Shown here in pieces: positions 3,041 to 63,846 of a stretch of 64,000 nucleotides of DNA (position 1 is the first letter of the stretch; each line of letters begins with the position of its first letter). The position numbers were made by a program, and so were the translations under genes. A model generated the notes under the pieces. The model was not told where the DNA came from and made no database searches. It saw nothing but the letters and a program-made list of their open reading frames with translations. Source of the stretch: Dehalococcoidia bacterium (GTDB lineage: Bacteria > Chloroflexota > Dehalococcoidia > Lucifugimonadales > UBA3495); the NCBI GenBank assembly GCA_963422635.1, contig OY730415.1:1210088-1274087 (forward strand), written 5' to 3'.

Positions 3041-3258
3041 TGCCGGGGGATTCTATCACAAAGGAAGTATGCAGATAAAGAAAGCTGGGCGGAAGCCCTA
3101 CCGGACAGCGCGCTAACTTGTCAACGGATTGTCCGGCTTATACAATTTCTGCCGGCGCCGGCAGGAGTTCCTCAGCCGGTATAGCTTGGGCGCAAGGGAC
3201 TTCTAAGGGGATGCCGGAGGAAGCGGGAAAGGCGGAAGGAAGTTTCGGGAGGAGATAT

Positions 3259-3561
3259 ATGATTGCTCAACTACGCATTTACACCATCAATCGAGGGATG
3301 ATGGATTCCTGGCTCCAGGTGTTTAACGAGCATATTCGGCCGCTGCACGATCGGTTGGGTATTCCGGTGGTCAGCTCTTACGTCAGCGCCGACCGATCCG
3401 AGTTTATCTGGGTGCGCCGCTTCAGCAGCGCCGAGGAGATACCAGCTAAGGAAGCGGAGTATTTCGCCTCCCCGGAACGTTCCGCTCTGGGCGACTTGCC
3501 TACCAGCCATATCGCCAAAATGGAAGTGCGGGTGATTGAAGAGGCGGCGGCCGGGGGTTAA
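3259..3561 (+). CDS. NIPSNAP-family protein
   Basis: ATG at 3259 preceded by GGGAGGAG. QLRIYTINRGMMDSW...FIWVRRFSS pattern of NIPSNAP/Dabb-fold proteins. The 3118 start in the ORF track is probably an over-extension. Confidence 0.55.
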   Translation: MIAQLRIYTINRGMMDSWLQVFNEHIRPLHDRLGIPVVSSYVSADRSEFIWVRRFSSAEEIPAKEAEYFASPERSALGDLPTSHIAKMEVRVIEEAAAGG

Positions 3562-3659
3562 GGGGGTACAAGGGGGGAATCGCCGGGAACTGGAAACCGC
3601 CGGCGTAGAAGGGGCGCTAAAATAGTTAATGAGAATCTATCTCTTGAGGGGGCGATGTG

Positions 3660-4025
3660 ATGCTGGGATCTCCTAATCGCTATGCGGCTGCCAGCCGGGA
3701 GTTTATGGAGAAGGCCTACCAGTATCTGGCAGCGGAGGACTTGCCGCAAGCCTCGGAAAAGGGTTGGGGGGCGGCGGCGGAGATGGTCAAGGCGGTCGCC
3801 GAGGAACGGGGGTGGCCGCACGACAGCCACCGCCTGTTATACCGGATTGTCCGCAATCTGGTGAACGAAACCGGGGATTCGCAGCTATCCAACTTGTTTC
3901 GGACAGCCTCCGATCTGCACATCAATTTTTACGAGAATTGGCTGCCGCCCGAGGATGTCCAATTGGCCCTTCAAGAGGTTCAGCAGTTGCTGACCAAGTT
4001 GGAGCCGTTGCTGGAAGCGGGGTAG
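3660..4025 (+). CDS. PaREP1/HEPN-like helical protein, tandem copy 1
   Basis: 121 aa. ASEKGWGAAAEMVKAVAEERGW-HDSHR and LHINFYENW resemble the PaREP1 family (tentative, from memory). First of three tandem paralogs. Confidence 0.45.
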   Translation: MLGSPNRYAAASREFMEKAYQYLAAEDLPQASEKGWGAAAEMVKAVAEERGWPHDSHRLLYRIVRNLVNETGDSQLSNLFRTASDLHINFYENWLPPEDVQLALQEVQQLLTKLEPLLEAG

Positions 4026-4155
4026 GGGCGGAGCGAGAGAGCAGGAAGATCATCGGGAATTATTGTTGCGGTCTTTGGGCGGGTAGGGGCGCGGTTCCAA
4101 ACCAGGGGATATAGGCGCGGTTATGCCGTTGCAATCGACTTACAGGAGCGACGTG

Positions 4156-4521
4156 ATGCTGGGATCCCCTAATCGCTATGCGGCTGCCAGCCGGGAGTTT
4201 ATGGAGAAGGCCTACCAGTACCTGGCAGCGGAGGACTTGCCGCAAGCCTCGGAAAAGGGTTGGGGGGCGGCGGCGGAGATGGTCAAGGCGGTCGCTGAGG
4301 AACGGGGGTGGCCACACGACAGCCACCGCTTGTTGTATGGCATCGTCCGTAATCTGGAACAGGAAACTGGCGATGCGCAACTGTTCAGCGGGTTTCAGAT
4401 GGCTTCCGGTCTGCACATCAATTTTTACGAGAACTGGTTGCATCCGGAGAACATCCGGCGGTCTCTTCAAGAGGTTCAGCAGTTGCTGACCAAATTGGAG
4501 CCGTTGCTGGAAGCGGGGTAG
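4156..4521 (+). CDS. PaREP1/HEPN-like helical protein, tandem copy 2
   Basis: Start exactly 496 bp after copy 1. RBS AGGAG is 6 nt upstream of GTGATG. N-terminal about 60 codons nearly identical to copy 1. Confidence 0.45.
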   Translation: MLGSPNRYAAASREFMEKAYQYLAAEDLPQASEKGWGAAAEMVKAVAEERGWPHDSHRLLYGIVRNLEQETGDAQLFSGFQMASGLHINFYENWLHPENIRRSLQEVQQLLTKLEPLLEAG

Positions 4522-4651
4522 GGGAGGAGCGAGGGAGCAGGAAGATCATCGGGAATTATTGCTGCGGTCTTTGGGCGGGTAGGGGCGCGGTTCCAAACCA
4601 GGGGATATAGGCGCGGTTATGCCGTTGCAATCGACTTACAGGAGCGATGTG

Positions 4652-5017
4652 ATGCTGGGATCTCCTAATCGCTATGCCGTTGCCAGCCGGGAGTTTATGG
4701 AGAAGGCTTATCAGTATCTGGCAGCGGAGGACTTGCCGCAAGCCTCGGAAAAGGGTTGGGGGGCGGCGGCGGAGATGGTCAAGGCGGTCGCCGAGGAACG
4801 GGGGTGGCCGCACCGACACCATCGTCTGTTGTATGAGATTATCGAGGATTTGGTAGATGAAACCGGGGATGAGGAACTGGCGGTTCTGTTTGAGCGAGCA
4901 TCCCGGTTGCATGCTAATTTCTACGAGAACTGGTTGCGGTCGCGGGCCGTCCGGCGCTCGTTGCTAGCCGTTCAACAACTGCTGACCAAGTTGGAGCCGT
5001 TGCTGGAAGCGGGGTAG
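4652..5017 (+). CDS. PaREP1/HEPN-like helical protein, tandem copy 3
   Basis: Start exactly 496 bp after copy 2. Same N- and C-termini, divergent centre (HRHHRLLYEIIEDLVDETGDEE...). Confidence 0.45.
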   Translation: MLGSPNRYAVASREFMEKAYQYLAAEDLPQASEKGWGAAAEMVKAVAEERGWPHRHHRLLYEIIEDLVDETGDEELAVLFERASRLHANFYENWLRSRAVRRSLLAVQQLLTKLEPLLEAG

Positions 5018-5033
5018 GGGCGGAGCGGTATCT

Positions 5034-5504
5034 TTACAACTCTTTTCCCATCGCAATATGCGGTATATCCGCCTCCAGGAAAACTGCGCCTCTTTCCTGG
5101 TAGCCGGACTCGGCATAAAAGTCCTTGACGTATTCTTGGGCGTGGAGGATGCAGTTGGTGATACCGCGGGCGCGGGCTTCGGCCTCCAGGAACTGGAGAA
5201 TTTGCCGGCCGGCGCCCCGGCGACGCCAAGCTTGCTCGACGGCCATGCGGCCGATACGTCCAATGGGGCGGCCAAGAGGGCCGGTTTGGCCGAAATTATC
5301 CGAATTATTGTCGATTACCAGGCGGCCGACGCCGATAACCACTCCCTGGTTCAGGGCGATGGCGTGGGTAGCGGTGGCATCGGCCTCGTCCAGTTCCACT
5401 TCGGCGGGGATTTTCTGCTCAACCACGAACACGCGCATTCGCAGGTTGATGGCCTCGTCCAGTTCCGCTTCCGTCTCCACCAGCTTGACCTCTATTTTGT
5501 CCAC
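5034..5504 (-). CDS. GNAT-family N-acetyltransferase
   Basis: RIGRMAVEQAWRRRGAGRQIL matches the acetyl-CoA binding motif A (R/Q-x-x-G-x-G/A). Confidence 0.8.
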   Translation of the reverse strand: MDKIEVKLVETEAELDEAINLRMRVFVVEQKIPAEVELDEADATATHAIALNQGVVIGVGRLVIDNNSDNFGQTGPLGRPIGRIGRMAVEQAWRRRGAGRQILQFLEAEARARGITNCILHAQEYVKDFYAESGYQERGAVFLEADIPHIAMGKEL

Positions 5505-5570
5505 GCCACCAAGTCCTTACTTGCCGGGTTTGCCAAGGGTTGGGCTGAACTGAACCCGATTTAGGGCCGG

Positions 5571-6776
5571 CTAGCGGGCCAAGCCGTAAGCGATGGCCCG
5601 GAGGTTCGGGTCTTCCGTGTTATTCAGCGCGGCGGCCACCGCAGCAATTAGCTTGCCGCCGGCAGTGTTGCCCCAGAACCAGCGGTGCAGGGCGTCCTCA
5701 TCGGCCTCCGGATTCTGTTCCATCCGGGCTTCGTAGTAGAAAGCCTTCAAGTCGTCGGCGCAGTAGCGGATGAACTGGGGACGGGACACGCTGGCTGGCC
5801 GCTCCGTCATGTCGGCCTCCGCATCACCATGGGCGCAGGCTTCGAGGAAACGGACCACTCCCCGGAAACGGCGCTGGGGGATGGCGCAGAGGCCGACGGC
5901 GGTGCGTCCGGCGTGATTTTCCACCCAACGCTCGTAGAAGGCGCGCAGGGCGGTTACCTCGTCGGCGGCGCTGCGTTCGGTGGGCGGCGGCTCGACGGTT
6001 ACCTGGGATGCTTGAGGCATACCGGACGGGACCGCAGCGTCATCGTCGGGGAAATCGGTTAATACCGGCCCTTGGGGAGCCTGAAGCAAATCCAGCGCGG
6101 CCTCGATTACCCGGCTCTGGTATTCAGCATCGTCGGGTTTACCCAGGGCAAAACCGAAGAAGAAAGGTACGAAGAGGGCGCGGGGCGGCTTTACCTTTTC
6201 GGCGTGTTCCCGCACCATAGCGATGGTAGTGGTGGCGATGCCATGTTCCTCGAAAACCCGGGCCAGCACACTCACGGTGTGGGTGCAGAGAGGTCAAGTA
6301 GGGGTAAGCAGCGCCACGTCCACTCCCTCGTCTTGCAATCGCCGAGCCACTTCCGGGCCGGTTTCCTCGATCATCCGGCGAGGGTCGCGGAGGGCGCCCA
6401 TAAAGGAGTAATAGTTCTCGGCCAGGCTGCCGACCGCGCCCCGTTCCGCTAACTCCCGCAAACGGTCAATGGGGAAGGTTACGTTCAAGTCCCGGTAGAT
6501 GCCGGTATGGTCGAAGCCAATGGAAAAGTGGCTTTGGATTACATCTGCCGGGTTGCAGTCGCTGGGGATAACCCGGTAGGTGAACTCGCCGCCCGGGTCG
6601 TCCCGATTAAAGGGTTTGTCGTCGCGAAGGTGCAGGCCGGCGGAGGTTATCAGGGCCACCTTGCTTTGGGACAGCGGCTTGACCGGCGTAACCCAGGGCG
6701 TGGCGTCATGCTCGATGCAAGGGAAGAACTCCAGGGTTCGGCGCTGGACCTCGCTGAGGGTTTCTAATCGGGGCAT
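5571..6776 (-). CDS. GrdB-family (glycine/sarcosine/betaine reductase protein B-like) candidate selenoprotein; Sec codon at 6294-6296
   Basis: ORFs 6294..6776 and 5571..6275 share one frame and are separated only by TGA plus 6 sense codons. Read-through gives ...VALLTPT-U-PLCTHTVSVLARVFEEHGIATTT. A hairpin at 6267-6281 starts 12 nt after the UGA. Confidence 0.6.
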
Positions 6777-6872
6777 AGCGGACTCCTTAGTTTGAGGTTC
6801 GCGCAGTTCGCCGCTGCTTGGCCGCTGGCCAAGGGGTTGGGGAGAGGGAGAACTGCGCTCGCGGTTTCAGCG

Positions 6873-8942: not shown

Positions 8943-9305
8943 TCAAATACTTTCCCGCAGTAGAACCTTATGGCGTGAGGTAACGGTTAAATCCATACTG
9001 GCCGGGTCGCAATACCGGTCAAACTCCCGGGCATCGCCCTTTATATGCCGGTGTTCTGAAACCAGAGTTCCATAGAACTGAACTTGGCCGATGGAGTTTA
9101 CCCCGCTGAGCTTGGCGGCCAAGGATGTGGTTCCGGCGCCGAGGAAGGGGTCAGCGATCCAGTGTTGCGGCGTAAGCCCATTCTCTTCAATTTTGGCTTG
9201 CACCAGTTTGTAGGAGTAGCCGGCCGGGTAGGTGAACCAGCGGTGAATCGGCGCTTTAAGGCTATCTTGAAAGGAGCCGTAACGCGGTTTGGCCGTTTCC
9301 AACAA
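8943..9305 (-). pseudogene. Truncated DNA methyltransferase fragment (N4/N6 type)
   Basis: HRWFTYPAGYS and DPFLGAGTT (AdoMet motif I) are present. ...GDAREF...SMDLTVTS then stops where TSPPY would be expected. Only 120 aa; locally lower GC. Confidence 0.45.
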
Positions 9306-9387: not shown

Positions 9388-11724
9388 TTACTTCTCCACC
9401 TTTTCCAGGCCGGCGTAGCTGAGCAGGAGCCGCCGCAGTTCGCCGCCGTCGAAGCGGACGGATACTTCGTAGTCGTTACCCCACGCCTCGCAGGCCATGA
9501 CCACCCCTACGCCGAATCGGCTGTGCCGCACCCCGTCGCCGATTTCCGGCACGTATCCCGGCGGCGGCTGGGTCGGGGCGGCGGCGGATGAACCGGGGGG
9601 CGAGCCGGGGGCTGAACCGGAGGATAAGGAATGCGGCTCCCGGTTCCGCGAGGGGGGACGCGGGCTGTCGGCAAGCCGGGCCGATGACGCTCCGGTTCCG
9701 GTTCCGGCGCGATTACCCCTTACGTTGCTGCCGGGGGCGCGGGCGTAGGTAGTTAGCTCCTCCGGAATCTCATCCAGAAAACGGGAGCGCAGAGTGGGGC
9801 CGCTGCTGCCCCACATGCTGCGGCGGAAGGCGCGCACTAAGTACAGCTTCTCCTTGGCTCGGGTGATGCCCACATAGCAGAGCCGCCGTTCCTCCTCCAG
9901 TTCTTCGTTGCTGTCCATGGAGCGGCTGTGGGGCAACAGACCCTCTTCCAGACCCACGATGAACACTACCGGAAACTCCAGTCCCTTGGCCTGATGCAGG
10001 GTAATTAGGGTAAGGGTGTCTTCCGATTCTTCGTAGCTGTCGGCATCGGAAACCAGGGAAACCCGCTCTAACAGGGCGGCCAGATCGTTCTCTGGGGAGT
10101 CGGAATGGTGTTCTCCGGCCAAGGCGATGAACTCCCGGAGGTTTTCCAGTCGTTCTTCCGGGCTGTTGTCGTTGCGCTGGATGTGGGCTTCCAGGCCCGA
10201 CTCGGCCAGGGTTAGCTTAATCAGGTCCGCCACCGGCATTTTGGTCTTGAGTTCGGTCAGGCGGCCCAGCAGGTCGCCGAACCGGGCCACGGCGGTATAG
10301 GCGCGGGATGCCAGGGGCGCCGGACAAGGCATCCCAGCGGCTTTGGCCTGGGATACCAGGAGGAGGGCGGCATAAACCGAGAGGCCCTGGCCGATGGACC
10401 AGTTGGTCAAGTCCTGAATCGACTTGTCGCCGATGCCCCGGGGCGGCGTATTGATGGCCCGCGCCAGGTTCAGGTCGTCTTGGGGGTTGTGGAGCAGGAA
10501 AAGGTAGGCGAGCAGGTCGCGGATTTCCCGCCGCCGGTAAAACTGGATGCCGCCGATAATGCGATACTTTATCCCTTGGCGCAGGCAGGCTTCTTCCAGG
10601 GCGCGGGATTGGGCGTTTACGCGGTACATCACGGCGCAGCGGCCGGGGGGTATTCTTTCCCGCCGGGCCAGGTCGTTTATCTGTTTAAGGACAAAGGCGG
10701 CCTCCTCATCCTGGGTATAAGCCTCGTGGATCACCACTTCCATCCCGGCGGGGTTCTCGGTGGTCAGTTCTTTGGGGGCCCGCATACCGTTGTTGGCGAT
10801 AAGACTGCTGGCCGCCCCCAGGATGGTTTGGGTGGAGCGATAGTTCTGCTCCAGGGTGATGACCTGGGCGTCCGGGTAGTCCTGCTGAAAGCTGAGAATG
10901 TTGCGGATGTCGGCGTTGCGCCAAGAGTAGATGGACTGGTCGGGGTCGCCGACCACGCAGATGTTCTGGTCGGGGCCGGTGAGCAGCCGGGCCAGCCGGT
11001 ACTGGGCGATGTTGGTATCTTGAAACTCGTCAATCATCAAGTATTCGTAGCGGCGCTGATACTCTTCGCGCACCTCGGCATTTTCGTAGAGGAGTTGGAC
11101 GGCTCGCAGCAGCAGGTCGTCGAAGTCCACGGCGTTGCGGCGCGCCAGCAGTTCTTCGTAGTGGTGATAGACTCGGGCGGCGGTTTCTTCCGGGTAGCTG
11201 TCATCGGTCTGGGCCTGCCGGGCCAGGGCTTCCGAACCCATCAGCAGGCTCTTGGCCCGGGAGATGATGGCCTGCATCGCCCGGGGTGGGTTGCGCTGGT
11301 CGTCAACGTCGGCTAGTTTCATGGCCTGCTTAAGCAGGCCCAACTGGTCGTCCGAGTCGTAAATGGTGTAATTGGCGTCGAGGCCGACGCCGTAGCCGTG
11401 GCGGCGGAGCAGCCGGGCGCAAAAGGAGTGGAAGGTGCCGGCAAAGATGGCGTCGGCCGCCGACTGGTTACTGCCGAAAAGGGACTGGGTGCGCTCCCGC
11501 AGTTCCCGGGCTGCTTTGTTGGTAAAGGTAACGGCGGCGATGCGGTAGGGGCTGACCCGGCATTCCTGCGCCAAGTAAGCGATGCGGTGGGTGATGACCC
11601 GGGTTTTGCCGCTGCCCGGCCCGGCGACAATCAGCAGCGGGCCGGCGGTGTGCAACACCGCTTCCGCCTGAGCGGGGTTCAGCCCGTCGATCAGGTTAAT
11701 GCCTGGAGCGTTTGGTTGATGCAT
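9388..11724 (-). CDS. pcrA: ATP-dependent DNA helicase PcrA/UvrD
   Basis: AGPGSGKTRV, TFTNKAA, DEFQDTN, GDPDQSIYSWRNA, NYRS, TLHQAKGLEF and YVGITRAK motifs, with a C-terminal Tudor-like tail. Confidence 0.9.
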   Translation of the reverse strand: MHQPNAPGINLIDGLNPAQAEAVLHTAGPLLIVAGPGSGKTRVITHRIAYLAQECRVSPYRIAAVTFTNKAARELRERTQSLFGSNQSAADAIFAGTFHSFCARLLRRHGYGVGLDANYTIYDSDDQLGLLKQAMKLADVDDQRNPPRAMQAIISRAKSLLMGSEALARQAQTDDSYPEETAARVYHHYEELLARRNAVDFDDLLLRAVQLLYENAEVREEYQRRYEYLMIDEFQDTNIAQYRLARLLTGPDQNICVVGDPDQSIYSWRNADIRNILSFQQDYPDAQVITLEQNYRSTQTILGAASSLIANNGMRAPKELTTENPAGMEVVIHEAYTQDEEAAFVLKQINDLARRERIPPGRCAVMYRVNAQSRALEEACLRQGIKYRIIGGIQFYRRREIRDLLAYLFLLHNPQDDLNLARAINTPPRGIGDKSIQDLTNWSIGQGLSVYAALLLVSQAKAAGMPCPAPLASRAYTAVARFGDLLGRLTELKTKMPVADLIKLTLAESGLEAHIQRNDNSPEERLENLREFIALAGEHHSDSPENDLAALLERVSLVSDADSYEESEDTLTLITLHQAKGLEFPVVFIVGLEEGLLPHSRSMDSNEELEEERRLCYVGITRAKEKLYLVRAFRRSMWGSSGPTLRSRFLDEIPEELTTYARAPGSNVRGNRAGTGTGASSARLADSPRPPSRNREPHSLSSGSAPGSPPGSSAAAPTQPPPGYVPEIGDGVRHSRFGVGVVMACEAWGNDYEVSVRFDGGELRRLLLSYAGLEKVEK

Positions 11725-42805: not shown

Positions 42806-43912
<1,107 letters not shown>

Positions 43913-62539: not shown

Positions 62540-63846
<1,307 letters not shown>

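Follow-up and report, generated by a model that had tools for sequence, protein, structure and literature searches.

How do neighbouring genes come to be almost identical at their ends, and in the DNA between them, and yet strongly diverged in their middle? The question is raised by a 64,000-nt stretch of a Dehalococcoidia genome (positions 1,210,088 to 1,274,087 of contig OY730415.1, assembly GCA_963422635.1), here called the window, in which three small genes of the PaREP1 family (Pfam PF05942) follow each other in tandem. A sequence-only reading of the window had noted that their starts are exactly 496 bp apart. This is the case: the ATG codons at 3660, 4156 and 4652 each begin an intact open reading frame (ORF) of 121 codons, and Tandem Repeats Finder (TRF) describes the array with a period of 496 bp, 2.8 copies, 86% matches and a score of 2021 (coordinates in Table 1). 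A GGAG-type Shine-Dalgarno sequence is found 7-8 nt upstream of each of the three ATG codons. Longer N-terminal starts at 4123 and 4619 were considered and rejected, as homologues begin with MLES or MLGS and the AGGAG Shine-Dalgarno sequence would fall inside the extension. With a GC content of 0.585-0.59 in the array against 0.604 in the window, the composition is unremarkable. The answer favoured here, and considered probable, is that the genes are three anciently diverged tandem paralogues, of centre subtypes called A, B and C, whose ends and spacers have been homogenised by gene conversion and whose centres have stayed subtype-specific.

A mosaic repeat unit

In an ungapped comparison of the three coding sequences, the pairs of copies differ at 4-8 sites in nucleotides 1-162, at 39-69 sites in nucleotides 163-328, and at 0-1 sites in nucleotides 329-366. 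Along the array, a conserved block of 330 nt, consisting of the 3' end of one gene, the spacer and the 5' half of the next gene, alternates with diverged centres of 166 nt, which differ between the three copies by 25-40%. The two blocks are near-identical to each other, with identical runs of 74-85 nt; taking all homogenised parts together, such runs are 74-102 nt long, as opposed to a longest run of 12-24 nt in the centres. A two-breakpoint maximum chi-square test on all sites puts the breakpoints at about nt 162 and 329, and the observed value is reached in 0 of 200 permutations. With third codon positions alone, it is reached 0, 0 and 1 times in 200 permutations. The uneven divergence along the unit that the sequence-only reading had described is thus borne out by site counts and by permutation, third positions included. 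The conserved ends are also there, but they are shorter than it had proposed, with 54 codons instead of about 60 in the 5' part and 12-13 instead of about 15 in the 3' part. The two spacers, for which about 5 mismatches had been estimated, differ at 4 of their 130 positions. In the flanks, homology to the spacer ends 8 nt (in patches, 17 nt) ahead of copy 1 and 10 nt past the stop of copy 3, and the earlier remark that a simple recent duplication of local sequence does not account for the spacer was correct.

Concerted ends and old centres

The array was compared with the 80 best related loci from species-representative genomes, using the proportions of synonymous (pS) and nonsynonymous (pN) differences. 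Within the window array, pS is 0.10-0.19 in the 5' half versus 0.54-0.72 in the centre, and the medians within arrays overall are 0.20 and 0.58, respectively. Between genomes, the median is 0.72 in the 5' half (with a minimum of 0.33) and 0.74 in the centre. The synonymous sites of the 5' half are saturated between genomes, which shows that they can change freely; likeness is seen only among neighbours in the same array. Across the whole family, two of the predicted helices, helix 1 and helix 4, belong to the segments that vary most (1.62 and 1.86 bits per column), yet they are identical among the window copies.

The two parts of the gene also have different nearest relatives. In the N-terminal 54 residues, the window copies are closest to their array mates (98-100%) and next to P0006, a paralogue on the same contig (91-93%). 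In the centre, copy 1 is closest to P0009 and L002_1 (78% amino acid identity each), copy 2 to P0043 (83%) and L010_1 (78%), and copy 3 to P0028 (83%) and L005_1 (74%). Copies 1 and 2 share 70% in this region, and the eight nearest relatives of the centre of copy 3 include neither copy 1 nor copy 2. Because the nearest N-terminal parts are those of array mates and the nearest centres are those of other genomes, three old subtypes whose ends were overwritten within the genome are indicated. Among the 62 genes found in multi-copy loci, the nearest N-terminal part lies in the gene's own locus in 43 cases and the nearest centre in 25. Gene conversion of the ends and spacers, already suggested from the sequence, is supported both by the contrast in pS and by this incongruence of nearest neighbours. 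It is worth noting that, with segments of different histories, whole-gene trees or whole-gene ratios of nonsynonymous to synonymous rates (dN/dS) of these paralogues will mislead. In the metagenomes of the Joint Genome Institute the best match has only 57% identity, and no closer relative was found there.

By the Nei-Gojobori method, and with the centre taken as codons 55-108, dS in the centre is 0.96-2.5, which is near saturation, and dN/dS is 0.16-0.34. The corresponding dS values are 0.09-0.22 for the 5' half and 0.11-0.37 for the 3' end. Compared with the nearest relatives in other genomes, pN/pS of the centre is about 0.2. This makes the centres old sequences kept by purifying selection, not recently diversified ones. 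The "diversification of one surface" that had been proposed alongside gene conversion is contradicted by these values and by the fact that the centres have closer relatives in other genomes. Mutagenesis by a diversity-generating retroelement was likewise rejected, on the substitution pattern between the copies and with no search for a reverse transcriptase in the window: the substitutions fall in all base pairs, transitions are dominant, and there is no adenine bias.

The same locus in other genomes

Tandem copies on the same strand, 2-4 per locus, occur in 23 of the 80 related loci. TRF finds arrays at L011 (378 bp, 3.8 copies), L039 (434 bp, 2.9 copies) and L038 (378 bp, 3.0 copies), and L011 and L039 show a softer version of the identity profile seen in the window. 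The 80 locus records come from metagenome-assembled genomes (MAGs) of Dehalococcoidia, SAR202, Chloroflexota, Acidimicrobiia or Candidatus Spongiisocius/Spongiisociaceae, with one of them labelled just "bacterium", and many of the MAGs that carry PaREP1 genes are associated with sponges.

The right flank of the array contains genes for GNAT, orf234, a GRDB-like protein and ADH, all on the minus strand, and is syntenic by tblastn with L002, L007, L008, L009, L010 and L113; the ADH has at most 94% amino acid identity to its relatives. The MR_MLE left flank of these relatives is absent from the window. A move of the block of NIPSNAP-like and PaREP1 genes into a new context was considered and rejected, since the difference from the relatives is confined to the left flank, synteny being kept on the right. 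If N stands for the 100-amino-acid NIPSNAP-like gene and P for a PaREP1 gene unmatched to subtype A, B or C, the window reads N-A-B-C, and the orthologous locus reads A-N in L002 and L113, N-B in L010, A-N-orf40-C in L081-L083, P-P-N in L007, P-N in L008, P-GNAT in L009, and four P copies in L011. A survey of copy number in related genomes thus gives 1-4 copies at the orthologous locus. Subtypes A, B and C are each present there in some genome, which favours an old cluster with homogenised ends. In L081-L083, representing three related genomes, a 40-amino-acid ORF has been called between the NIPSNAP-like gene and the second PaREP1 gene (for example L081 3591-3713); it has a 48%-identical match downstream of the PaREP1 gene of L010, and is absent from the window.

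Family, fold and putative active site

The PF05942 profile gives 82.2, 74.0 and 74.1 bits for copies 1, 2 and 3, compared with a gathering cutoff of 24.4, and covers model positions 2-114 in copies 1 and 2 and 5-114 in copy 3, out of 115. A precomputed PF05942 assignment is found on all 120 of the 120 listed homologues. A scan with NCBIfam gave no meaningful match for the array proteins. An AlphaFold2 model built from 41 homologues has a predicted local distance difference test (pLDDT) score of 94.7 and contains five helices, at residues 7-24, 28-50, 57-71 (an insert), 75-92 and 97-117. Foldseek ranks 2q00_A, a PaREP1 protein from Sulfolobus, first (E 4e-4, template modelling (TM) score 0.80, root-mean-square deviation 2.1 over 118 columns), and its further top matches, namely 2hsb, 1ufb, 1wol, 1o3u and 3o10 (sacsin), are all HEPN. 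In a phmmer search, 2jpu/2q00 is matched with E 0.022, and H87 is aligned to the LH of 2q00. The model supports the view that the array genes belong to the PaREP1 family and have a HEPN-type fold. The PaREP1/HEPN membership proposed before any search is in this way confirmed, by profile scores of 74-82 bits and by a predicted structure matching 2q00.

The motif residues are a different matter. Anantharaman et al. 2013 (PMC3710099) put Parep1/8 in the HEPN-T clade and describe the HEPN Rx4-6H motif as sitting at the end of helix 3. In their Table 1, PaREP1 is said to be a family that "lacks R but H is conserved"; the same authors describe its genes as "in tandem repeats" and invoke "other strongly conserved basic residues". 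When the published description is mapped onto the model, the canonical position runs from residues 81/82 to H87. H87, N89, Y91 and E92 are invariant in the 120 homologues, and an Arg at 81 or 82 is found in only 22 of them. The residues there are R81-x5-H87 in copy 1, R82-x4-H87 in copy 3 and, without an Arg at the canonical position, Q81/M82 in copy 2. The sequence-only reading had taken ERGWPH(D/R)(S/H)H, shared by all copies, for the Rx4-6H motif. This does not hold, as R50-G-W-x-H54 and H57 are located in the loop after helix 2, within an insert between helices 2 and 3, and the canonical site is at the end of helix 3. The insert residues are well conserved (R50 in 114, H54 in 120 and H57 in 113 of the 120 homologues), and they are absent from 2q00. 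Because R50-x6-H57 lies in an insert that 2q00 is missing, it is not the positional equivalent of Rx4-6H; R50, H54 and H57 may instead be one of the cases of "other strongly conserved basic residues". In a fold with up-down topology and short loops, the end of helix 75-92 would be placed near the end of helix 28-50.

Judging from family membership and conservation, the array products are predicted to be small HEPN-type proteins that bind or cut RNA. The predicted site would consist of H87, N89, Y91 and E92, perhaps with R50, H54 and H57 of the insert replacing the canonical Arg. In the literature mentioning the family name, no experimental study of any PaREP1 protein was found.

How the mosaic may have arisen

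The proposed explanation is that the locus gains, loses and reorders tandem PaREP1 genes of a bacterial subfamily, which encode a four-helix domain of the HEPN-T clade, and that gene conversion between neighbours would repeatedly overwrite the 330-nt block made up of the closing 38 nt of a gene, the 130-nt spacer and the opening 162 nt of its neighbour. At the outer edges of the array, where copy 1 has the corresponding 5' part and copy 3 the corresponding 3' part, the overwriting would be the same, so that the homogenised parts evolve in concert. The central 166 nt, encoding the insert, helix 3 with its conserved His and the start of helix 4, would keep their subtype identity by purifying selection. 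Conversion tracts probably end at the centre because the identical runs there are only 12-24 nt, compared with 74-102 nt in the homogenised parts, which suggests a homology threshold. A second possible reason for tracts stopping there is that the subtypes may not be interchangeable.

Several points weigh against this explanation or qualify parts of it. Neither the 130-nt spacer nor the same A-B-C array occurs in any of the related genomes examined, and it is therefore from parsimony that conversion is deduced to have homogenised the ends and not to have imported the centres. No source or relative of the spacer was detected in the rest of the window, in 83 related loci or in the metagenome collection. 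P0043 (subtype B) and P0028 (subtype C) are each encoded by a solitary gene at an unrelated locus; the link of the subtypes to the orthologous locus therefore does not hold in every lineage. The function of PaREP1 and the operon structure are both predictions from sequence. Co-transcription of the three PaREP1 genes with the upstream NIPSNAP-like gene would be compatible with a scan of 3100-5600 for promoters and terminators, which found no terminator-like site and a single promoter-like site, compared with about 0.9 expected by chance. Similarly, the putative clustering of R50, H54 and H57 with H87 is deduced from helix topology, not from coordinates.

The main rival explanation, which is judged unlikely, is a young array, where a gene with its spacer was recently triplicated and the centres were later replaced by conversion from dispersed PaREP1 paralogues. 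With 97% identity to each other and no counterpart in the flanks, the spacers look as they would in a duplicated unit; B and C centres occur as dispersed single genes in other genomes; and P0006 is a fourth paralogue located elsewhere in the source genome. However, P0006 is the only other paralogue on the contig, has 72% to the centre of copy 3, and is outside the eight nearest relatives of the centres of copies 1 and 2, which means that no recent donor is visible. Such a history also requires two independent, precisely bounded central replacements, and it has to accommodate the homogenised 5' halves in many arrays with short, unrelated spacers, as well as the presence of all three subtypes at the orthologous locus in relatives. 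It is improbable that the genes were recently duplicated and that diversifying (positive) selection then acted on a central surface while the ends stayed unchanged; of this model, the sequence-only reading had proposed the diversification of one surface. Amino acid differences are in fact concentrated in residues 55-108, around the predicted active-site end of helix 3, but the near-saturated dS and low dN/dS of the centres do not fit, each centre has relatives at 74-83% in other genomes with pN/pS of about 0.2, and an adenine-specific substitution bias is absent.

A function at the nucleotide level (a structured RNA, a regulatory element or an antisense gene), rather than recombination, could also hold the ends and spacer constant, and this is more improbable still. 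Antisense ORFs are present on the minus strand at 3558-3830, 4060-4470 and 4556-4912, and the latter two span part of the spacers, the 5' halves and some of the centre of copies 2 and 3. Yet the saturation of sense synonymous sites in the 5' half between genomes means that the region conserves no RNA element and no antisense protein; for this reason, and with the sense frame under purifying selection, the antisense ORFs were rejected as real genes. The spacers of other arrays are only 8-30 nt long, and the fold of the window's spacer is no better than that of shuffled sequence (z +1.7 as RNA; z +1.2 as DNA, with the bottom strand at -8 kcal/mol) and has no Rfam match at E<=1, on which grounds a structured RNA in the spacer was rejected. 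An integron cassette array with attC in the spacer was also rejected, given the shuffled-level fold and a repeat that runs into the coding sequence, unlike integron cassettes. Finally, short-read assemblers may be led astray by repeats that are some 330 nt long and 97-100% identical, and could have expanded or collapsed the array. But each unit has its own unique centre, diverged by 25-40%, the record of the 2.64-Mb contig lists the three proteins separately, and an equivalent architecture is found in independent complete-chromosome assemblies. An assembly artefact is for these reasons very unlikely, and the least probable of the explanations considered here.

Layout of the locus and neighbouring genes

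Table 1. Features of the PaREP1 array and its surroundings (positions in the window unless a related locus is named)
Feature	Coordinates	Strand	Evidence or remark
Tandem array	3652..5027	+	TRF; boundaries by flank comparison
PaREP1 copy 1, 121 aa, centre subtype A	3660..4025	+	PF05942 E 3.4e-23, 82.2 bits; AlphaFold2 pLDDT 94.7; Foldseek 2q00 TM 0.80
Spacer 1, 130 nt	4026..4155	+	AGGAG Shine-Dalgarno 8 nt before copy 2 ATG; 4/130 mismatches to spacer 2
PaREP1 copy 2, 121 aa, centre subtype B	4156..4521	+	PF05942 E 1.2e-20
Spacer 2, 130 nt	4522..4651	+	near-identical to spacer 1
PaREP1 copy 3, 121 aa, centre subtype C	4652..5017	+	PF05942 E 1.1e-20
Homogenised block 1 (copy 1 3' 38 nt, spacer 1, copy 2 5' 162 nt)	3988..4317	+	contiguous 330 nt
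Homogenised block 2 (copy 2 3' 38 nt, spacer 2, copy 3 5' 162 nt)	4484..4813	+	
Diverged centre of copy 1 (codons 55-109: insert helix, helix 3, helix 4 start)	3822..3987	+	
Diverged centre of copy 2	4318..4483	+	
Diverged centre of copy 3	4814..4979	+	
Sigma-70-like promoter match TTGTCA-17-TACAAT, candidate for the unit of NIPSNAP-like gene and three PaREP1 genes	3118..3146	+	sole match in 3100-5600
NIPSNAP-like gene, 100 aa	3259..3561	+	98 nt upstream of copy 1; Pfam NIPSNAP E 7.7e-5, 23.3 bits, cutoff 22.3
GNAT acetyltransferase gene in convergent orientation to the array; opens the right-hand syntenic anchor	5034..5504	-	Pfam; tblastn synteny
NIPSNAP-like gene in relatives	L002 6407-6697; L007 5771-6070; L008 6406-6705; L010 5610-5897; L081 3061-3363; L113 3407-3703		

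The NIPSNAP-like protein, of the dimeric alpha/beta-barrel type by a weak Pfam match, has 85-88% amino acid identity to ORFs beside PaREP1 in L002, L007, L008, L010, L081-L083, L113 and L114. At the orthologous locus of at least 9 genomes its gene lies beside PaREP1 on the same strand, in a varying relative position. As this neighbour is confined to one syntenic locus, the evidence for coupling with PaREP1 is weak.

The absence of an adjacent nucleotidyltransferase (MNT) gene, as noted earlier for the array, holds for the window, where the neighbours by Pfam are the NIPSNAP-like and GNAT genes, and also for related loci, where no MNT or NTP-transferase family is among the top Pfam families of 150 flanking ORFs. 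Makarova et al. 2013 (PMC3632139) state that paREP1/8 "is not associated with MNT" and that its antitoxin, if any, is "still unidentified". Neither Pfam annotation of the 150 flanking ORFs nor all-versus-all clustering of 1786 flanking ORFs gave a universal partner gene. The clustering yielded only locus-specific or clade-specific synteny blocks, such as MR_MLE, PmbA/TldD, the NIPSNAP-like gene and a small aspartyl-protease-like ORF, and the flanking genes at related loci are mostly metabolic or housekeeping genes at syntenic positions. With the defence models of PADLOC-DB there was no match at E<=1, except a chance-level one (0.058) to a type I specificity subunit.

Some other neighbours recur. 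An ORF of about 156 amino acids is found within 1.5 kb of PaREP1 in 8 loci (L006, L013, L014, L016, L020, L026 at 6385-6855 on the minus strand, L038 and L043), which include one Acidimicrobiia genome and overlap in part with the PmbA/TldD synteny block. Upstream flanking ORFs of two loci match Asp_protease_2 in Pfam, and the ORF of about 156 amino acids is itself labelled by that association. Genes for DNA methylase, HNH and MmeI recur beside PaREP1 in other loci at low frequency.

A further idea, considered quite unlikely, is that the tandem paralogues may form a self-contained multi-subunit HEPN system. According to this idea, it would be selection, and not neutral conversion, that keeps the hairpin of helices 1 and 2 identical, as an interface for co-assembly of A, B and C, and the distinct centres would give composite sites with differing RNA specificities. 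Alternatively, copy 2, which has no Arg in helix 3, could act as an inhibitor of the other copies, which would bear on the question of what restrains PaREP1 proteins that have no MNT. A weaker variant has the NIPSNAP-like neighbour as the inhibitor.

Other observations in the window

Within the right flank, the GRDB-like ORF (6294-6776) and orf234, which has no family (5571-6275, minus strand), are in one frame and split by a single TGA (6294-6296). The context of this codon, TPT-TGA-PLC, amounts to a U-x-x-C motif, and the same adjacent pair is found in L002, L008, L009 and L010. Judged by this context, 5571-6776 on the minus strand looks like one GrdB-like selenoprotein of about 401 amino acids with a selenocysteine codon, and not like two genes. 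Further along, a 120-amino-acid ORF at 8943-9305 on the minus strand matches only positions 160-208 of the 221-position N6_N4 DNA methylase model and is probably a gene fragment. Beside it, at 9388-11724, there is an ORF of 778 amino acids that, by the look of its sequence, may encode a helicase of the UvrD/PcrA type. TRF also finds a perfect 18-nt tandem repeat, CTCCCGCCGCTACCGCTC, at 42915-42983 (3.8 copies, 100% identity), which probably encodes a hexapeptide repeat, and a homopolymer of 37 C at 63002-63038. The latter is unusual in a bacterial chromosome, and could be a phase-variable tract or an artefact of sequencing or assembly.

Comparison with known systems and significance

The closest known system is PaREP1/PaREP8 itself (PF05942; 2q00/2jpu, Sulfolobus solfataricus P95883), with which the array proteins have in common the fold, an invariant His at the end of helix 3, a non-conserved Arg, genes in tandem, and no MNT. 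They differ in their hosts. PaREP1 has been described as archaeal, crenarchaeal and present "almost exclusively in thermophiles" (PMC3710099, PMC3632139), whereas the hosts here are bacterial (Dehalococcoidia/SAR202 and Acidimicrobiia MAGs). The array subfamily also has invariant residues of its own in the insert, R50-G-W-x-H54 and H57, which 2q00 does not have, and unlike the known PaREP1/PaREP8 family it shows no fusion to RHH or helicase. The AF0298-like HEPN-T protein 2hsb has the highest TM-score (0.86), but only 13% sequence identity. In AF0298 the motif His is absent and a basic residue is kept, and the array proteins show the reverse, with H87 kept and the Arg lost. The type II/VII toxin-antitoxin modules of the HEPN-MNT kind (HepT/MntA) share the HEPN fold, small genes and many copies per genome, but they differ in that the array and the 80 related loci have no nucleotidyltransferase and in that Rx4-6H is not conserved.

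Partial concerted evolution of duplicated genes by gene conversion occurs in bacteria, as with tufA/tufB in Salmonella. Like that type of case, the array has paralogues within a genome that are closer than orthologues, also at synonymous sites, with sharp boundaries and incongruent segments. What is different is that only the ends and the intergenic spacer are homogenised, that the central module is subtype-specific, and that the pattern recurs in many independent arrays.

The array is thus a clear but ordinary instance of partial concerted evolution within a known gene family. For PaREP1, the criteria for membership, the HEPN fold, the tandem arrangement, the loss of the canonical Arg and the absence of MNT are already published. 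The expansion of PaREP1 in bacterial Dehalococcoidia/SAR202 and Acidimicrobiia MAGs, the insert motif of the subfamily, and the recurrent concerted evolution that spares a central module are not described in the literature searched. The importance of these findings is modest, and a specialist is unlikely to be surprised by them. They do show a large lineage-specific expansion of PaREP1 in Dehalococcoidia and Acidimicrobiia MAGs of marine and sponge origin, where the loci number in the hundreds and one genome often has several. The arrays are in effect natural chimeras, with module boundaries at about residues 54/55 and 108/109 that separate a common scaffold from a subtype-specific, putative active-site region, and this boundary could guide experiments on a family without a known function or partner.

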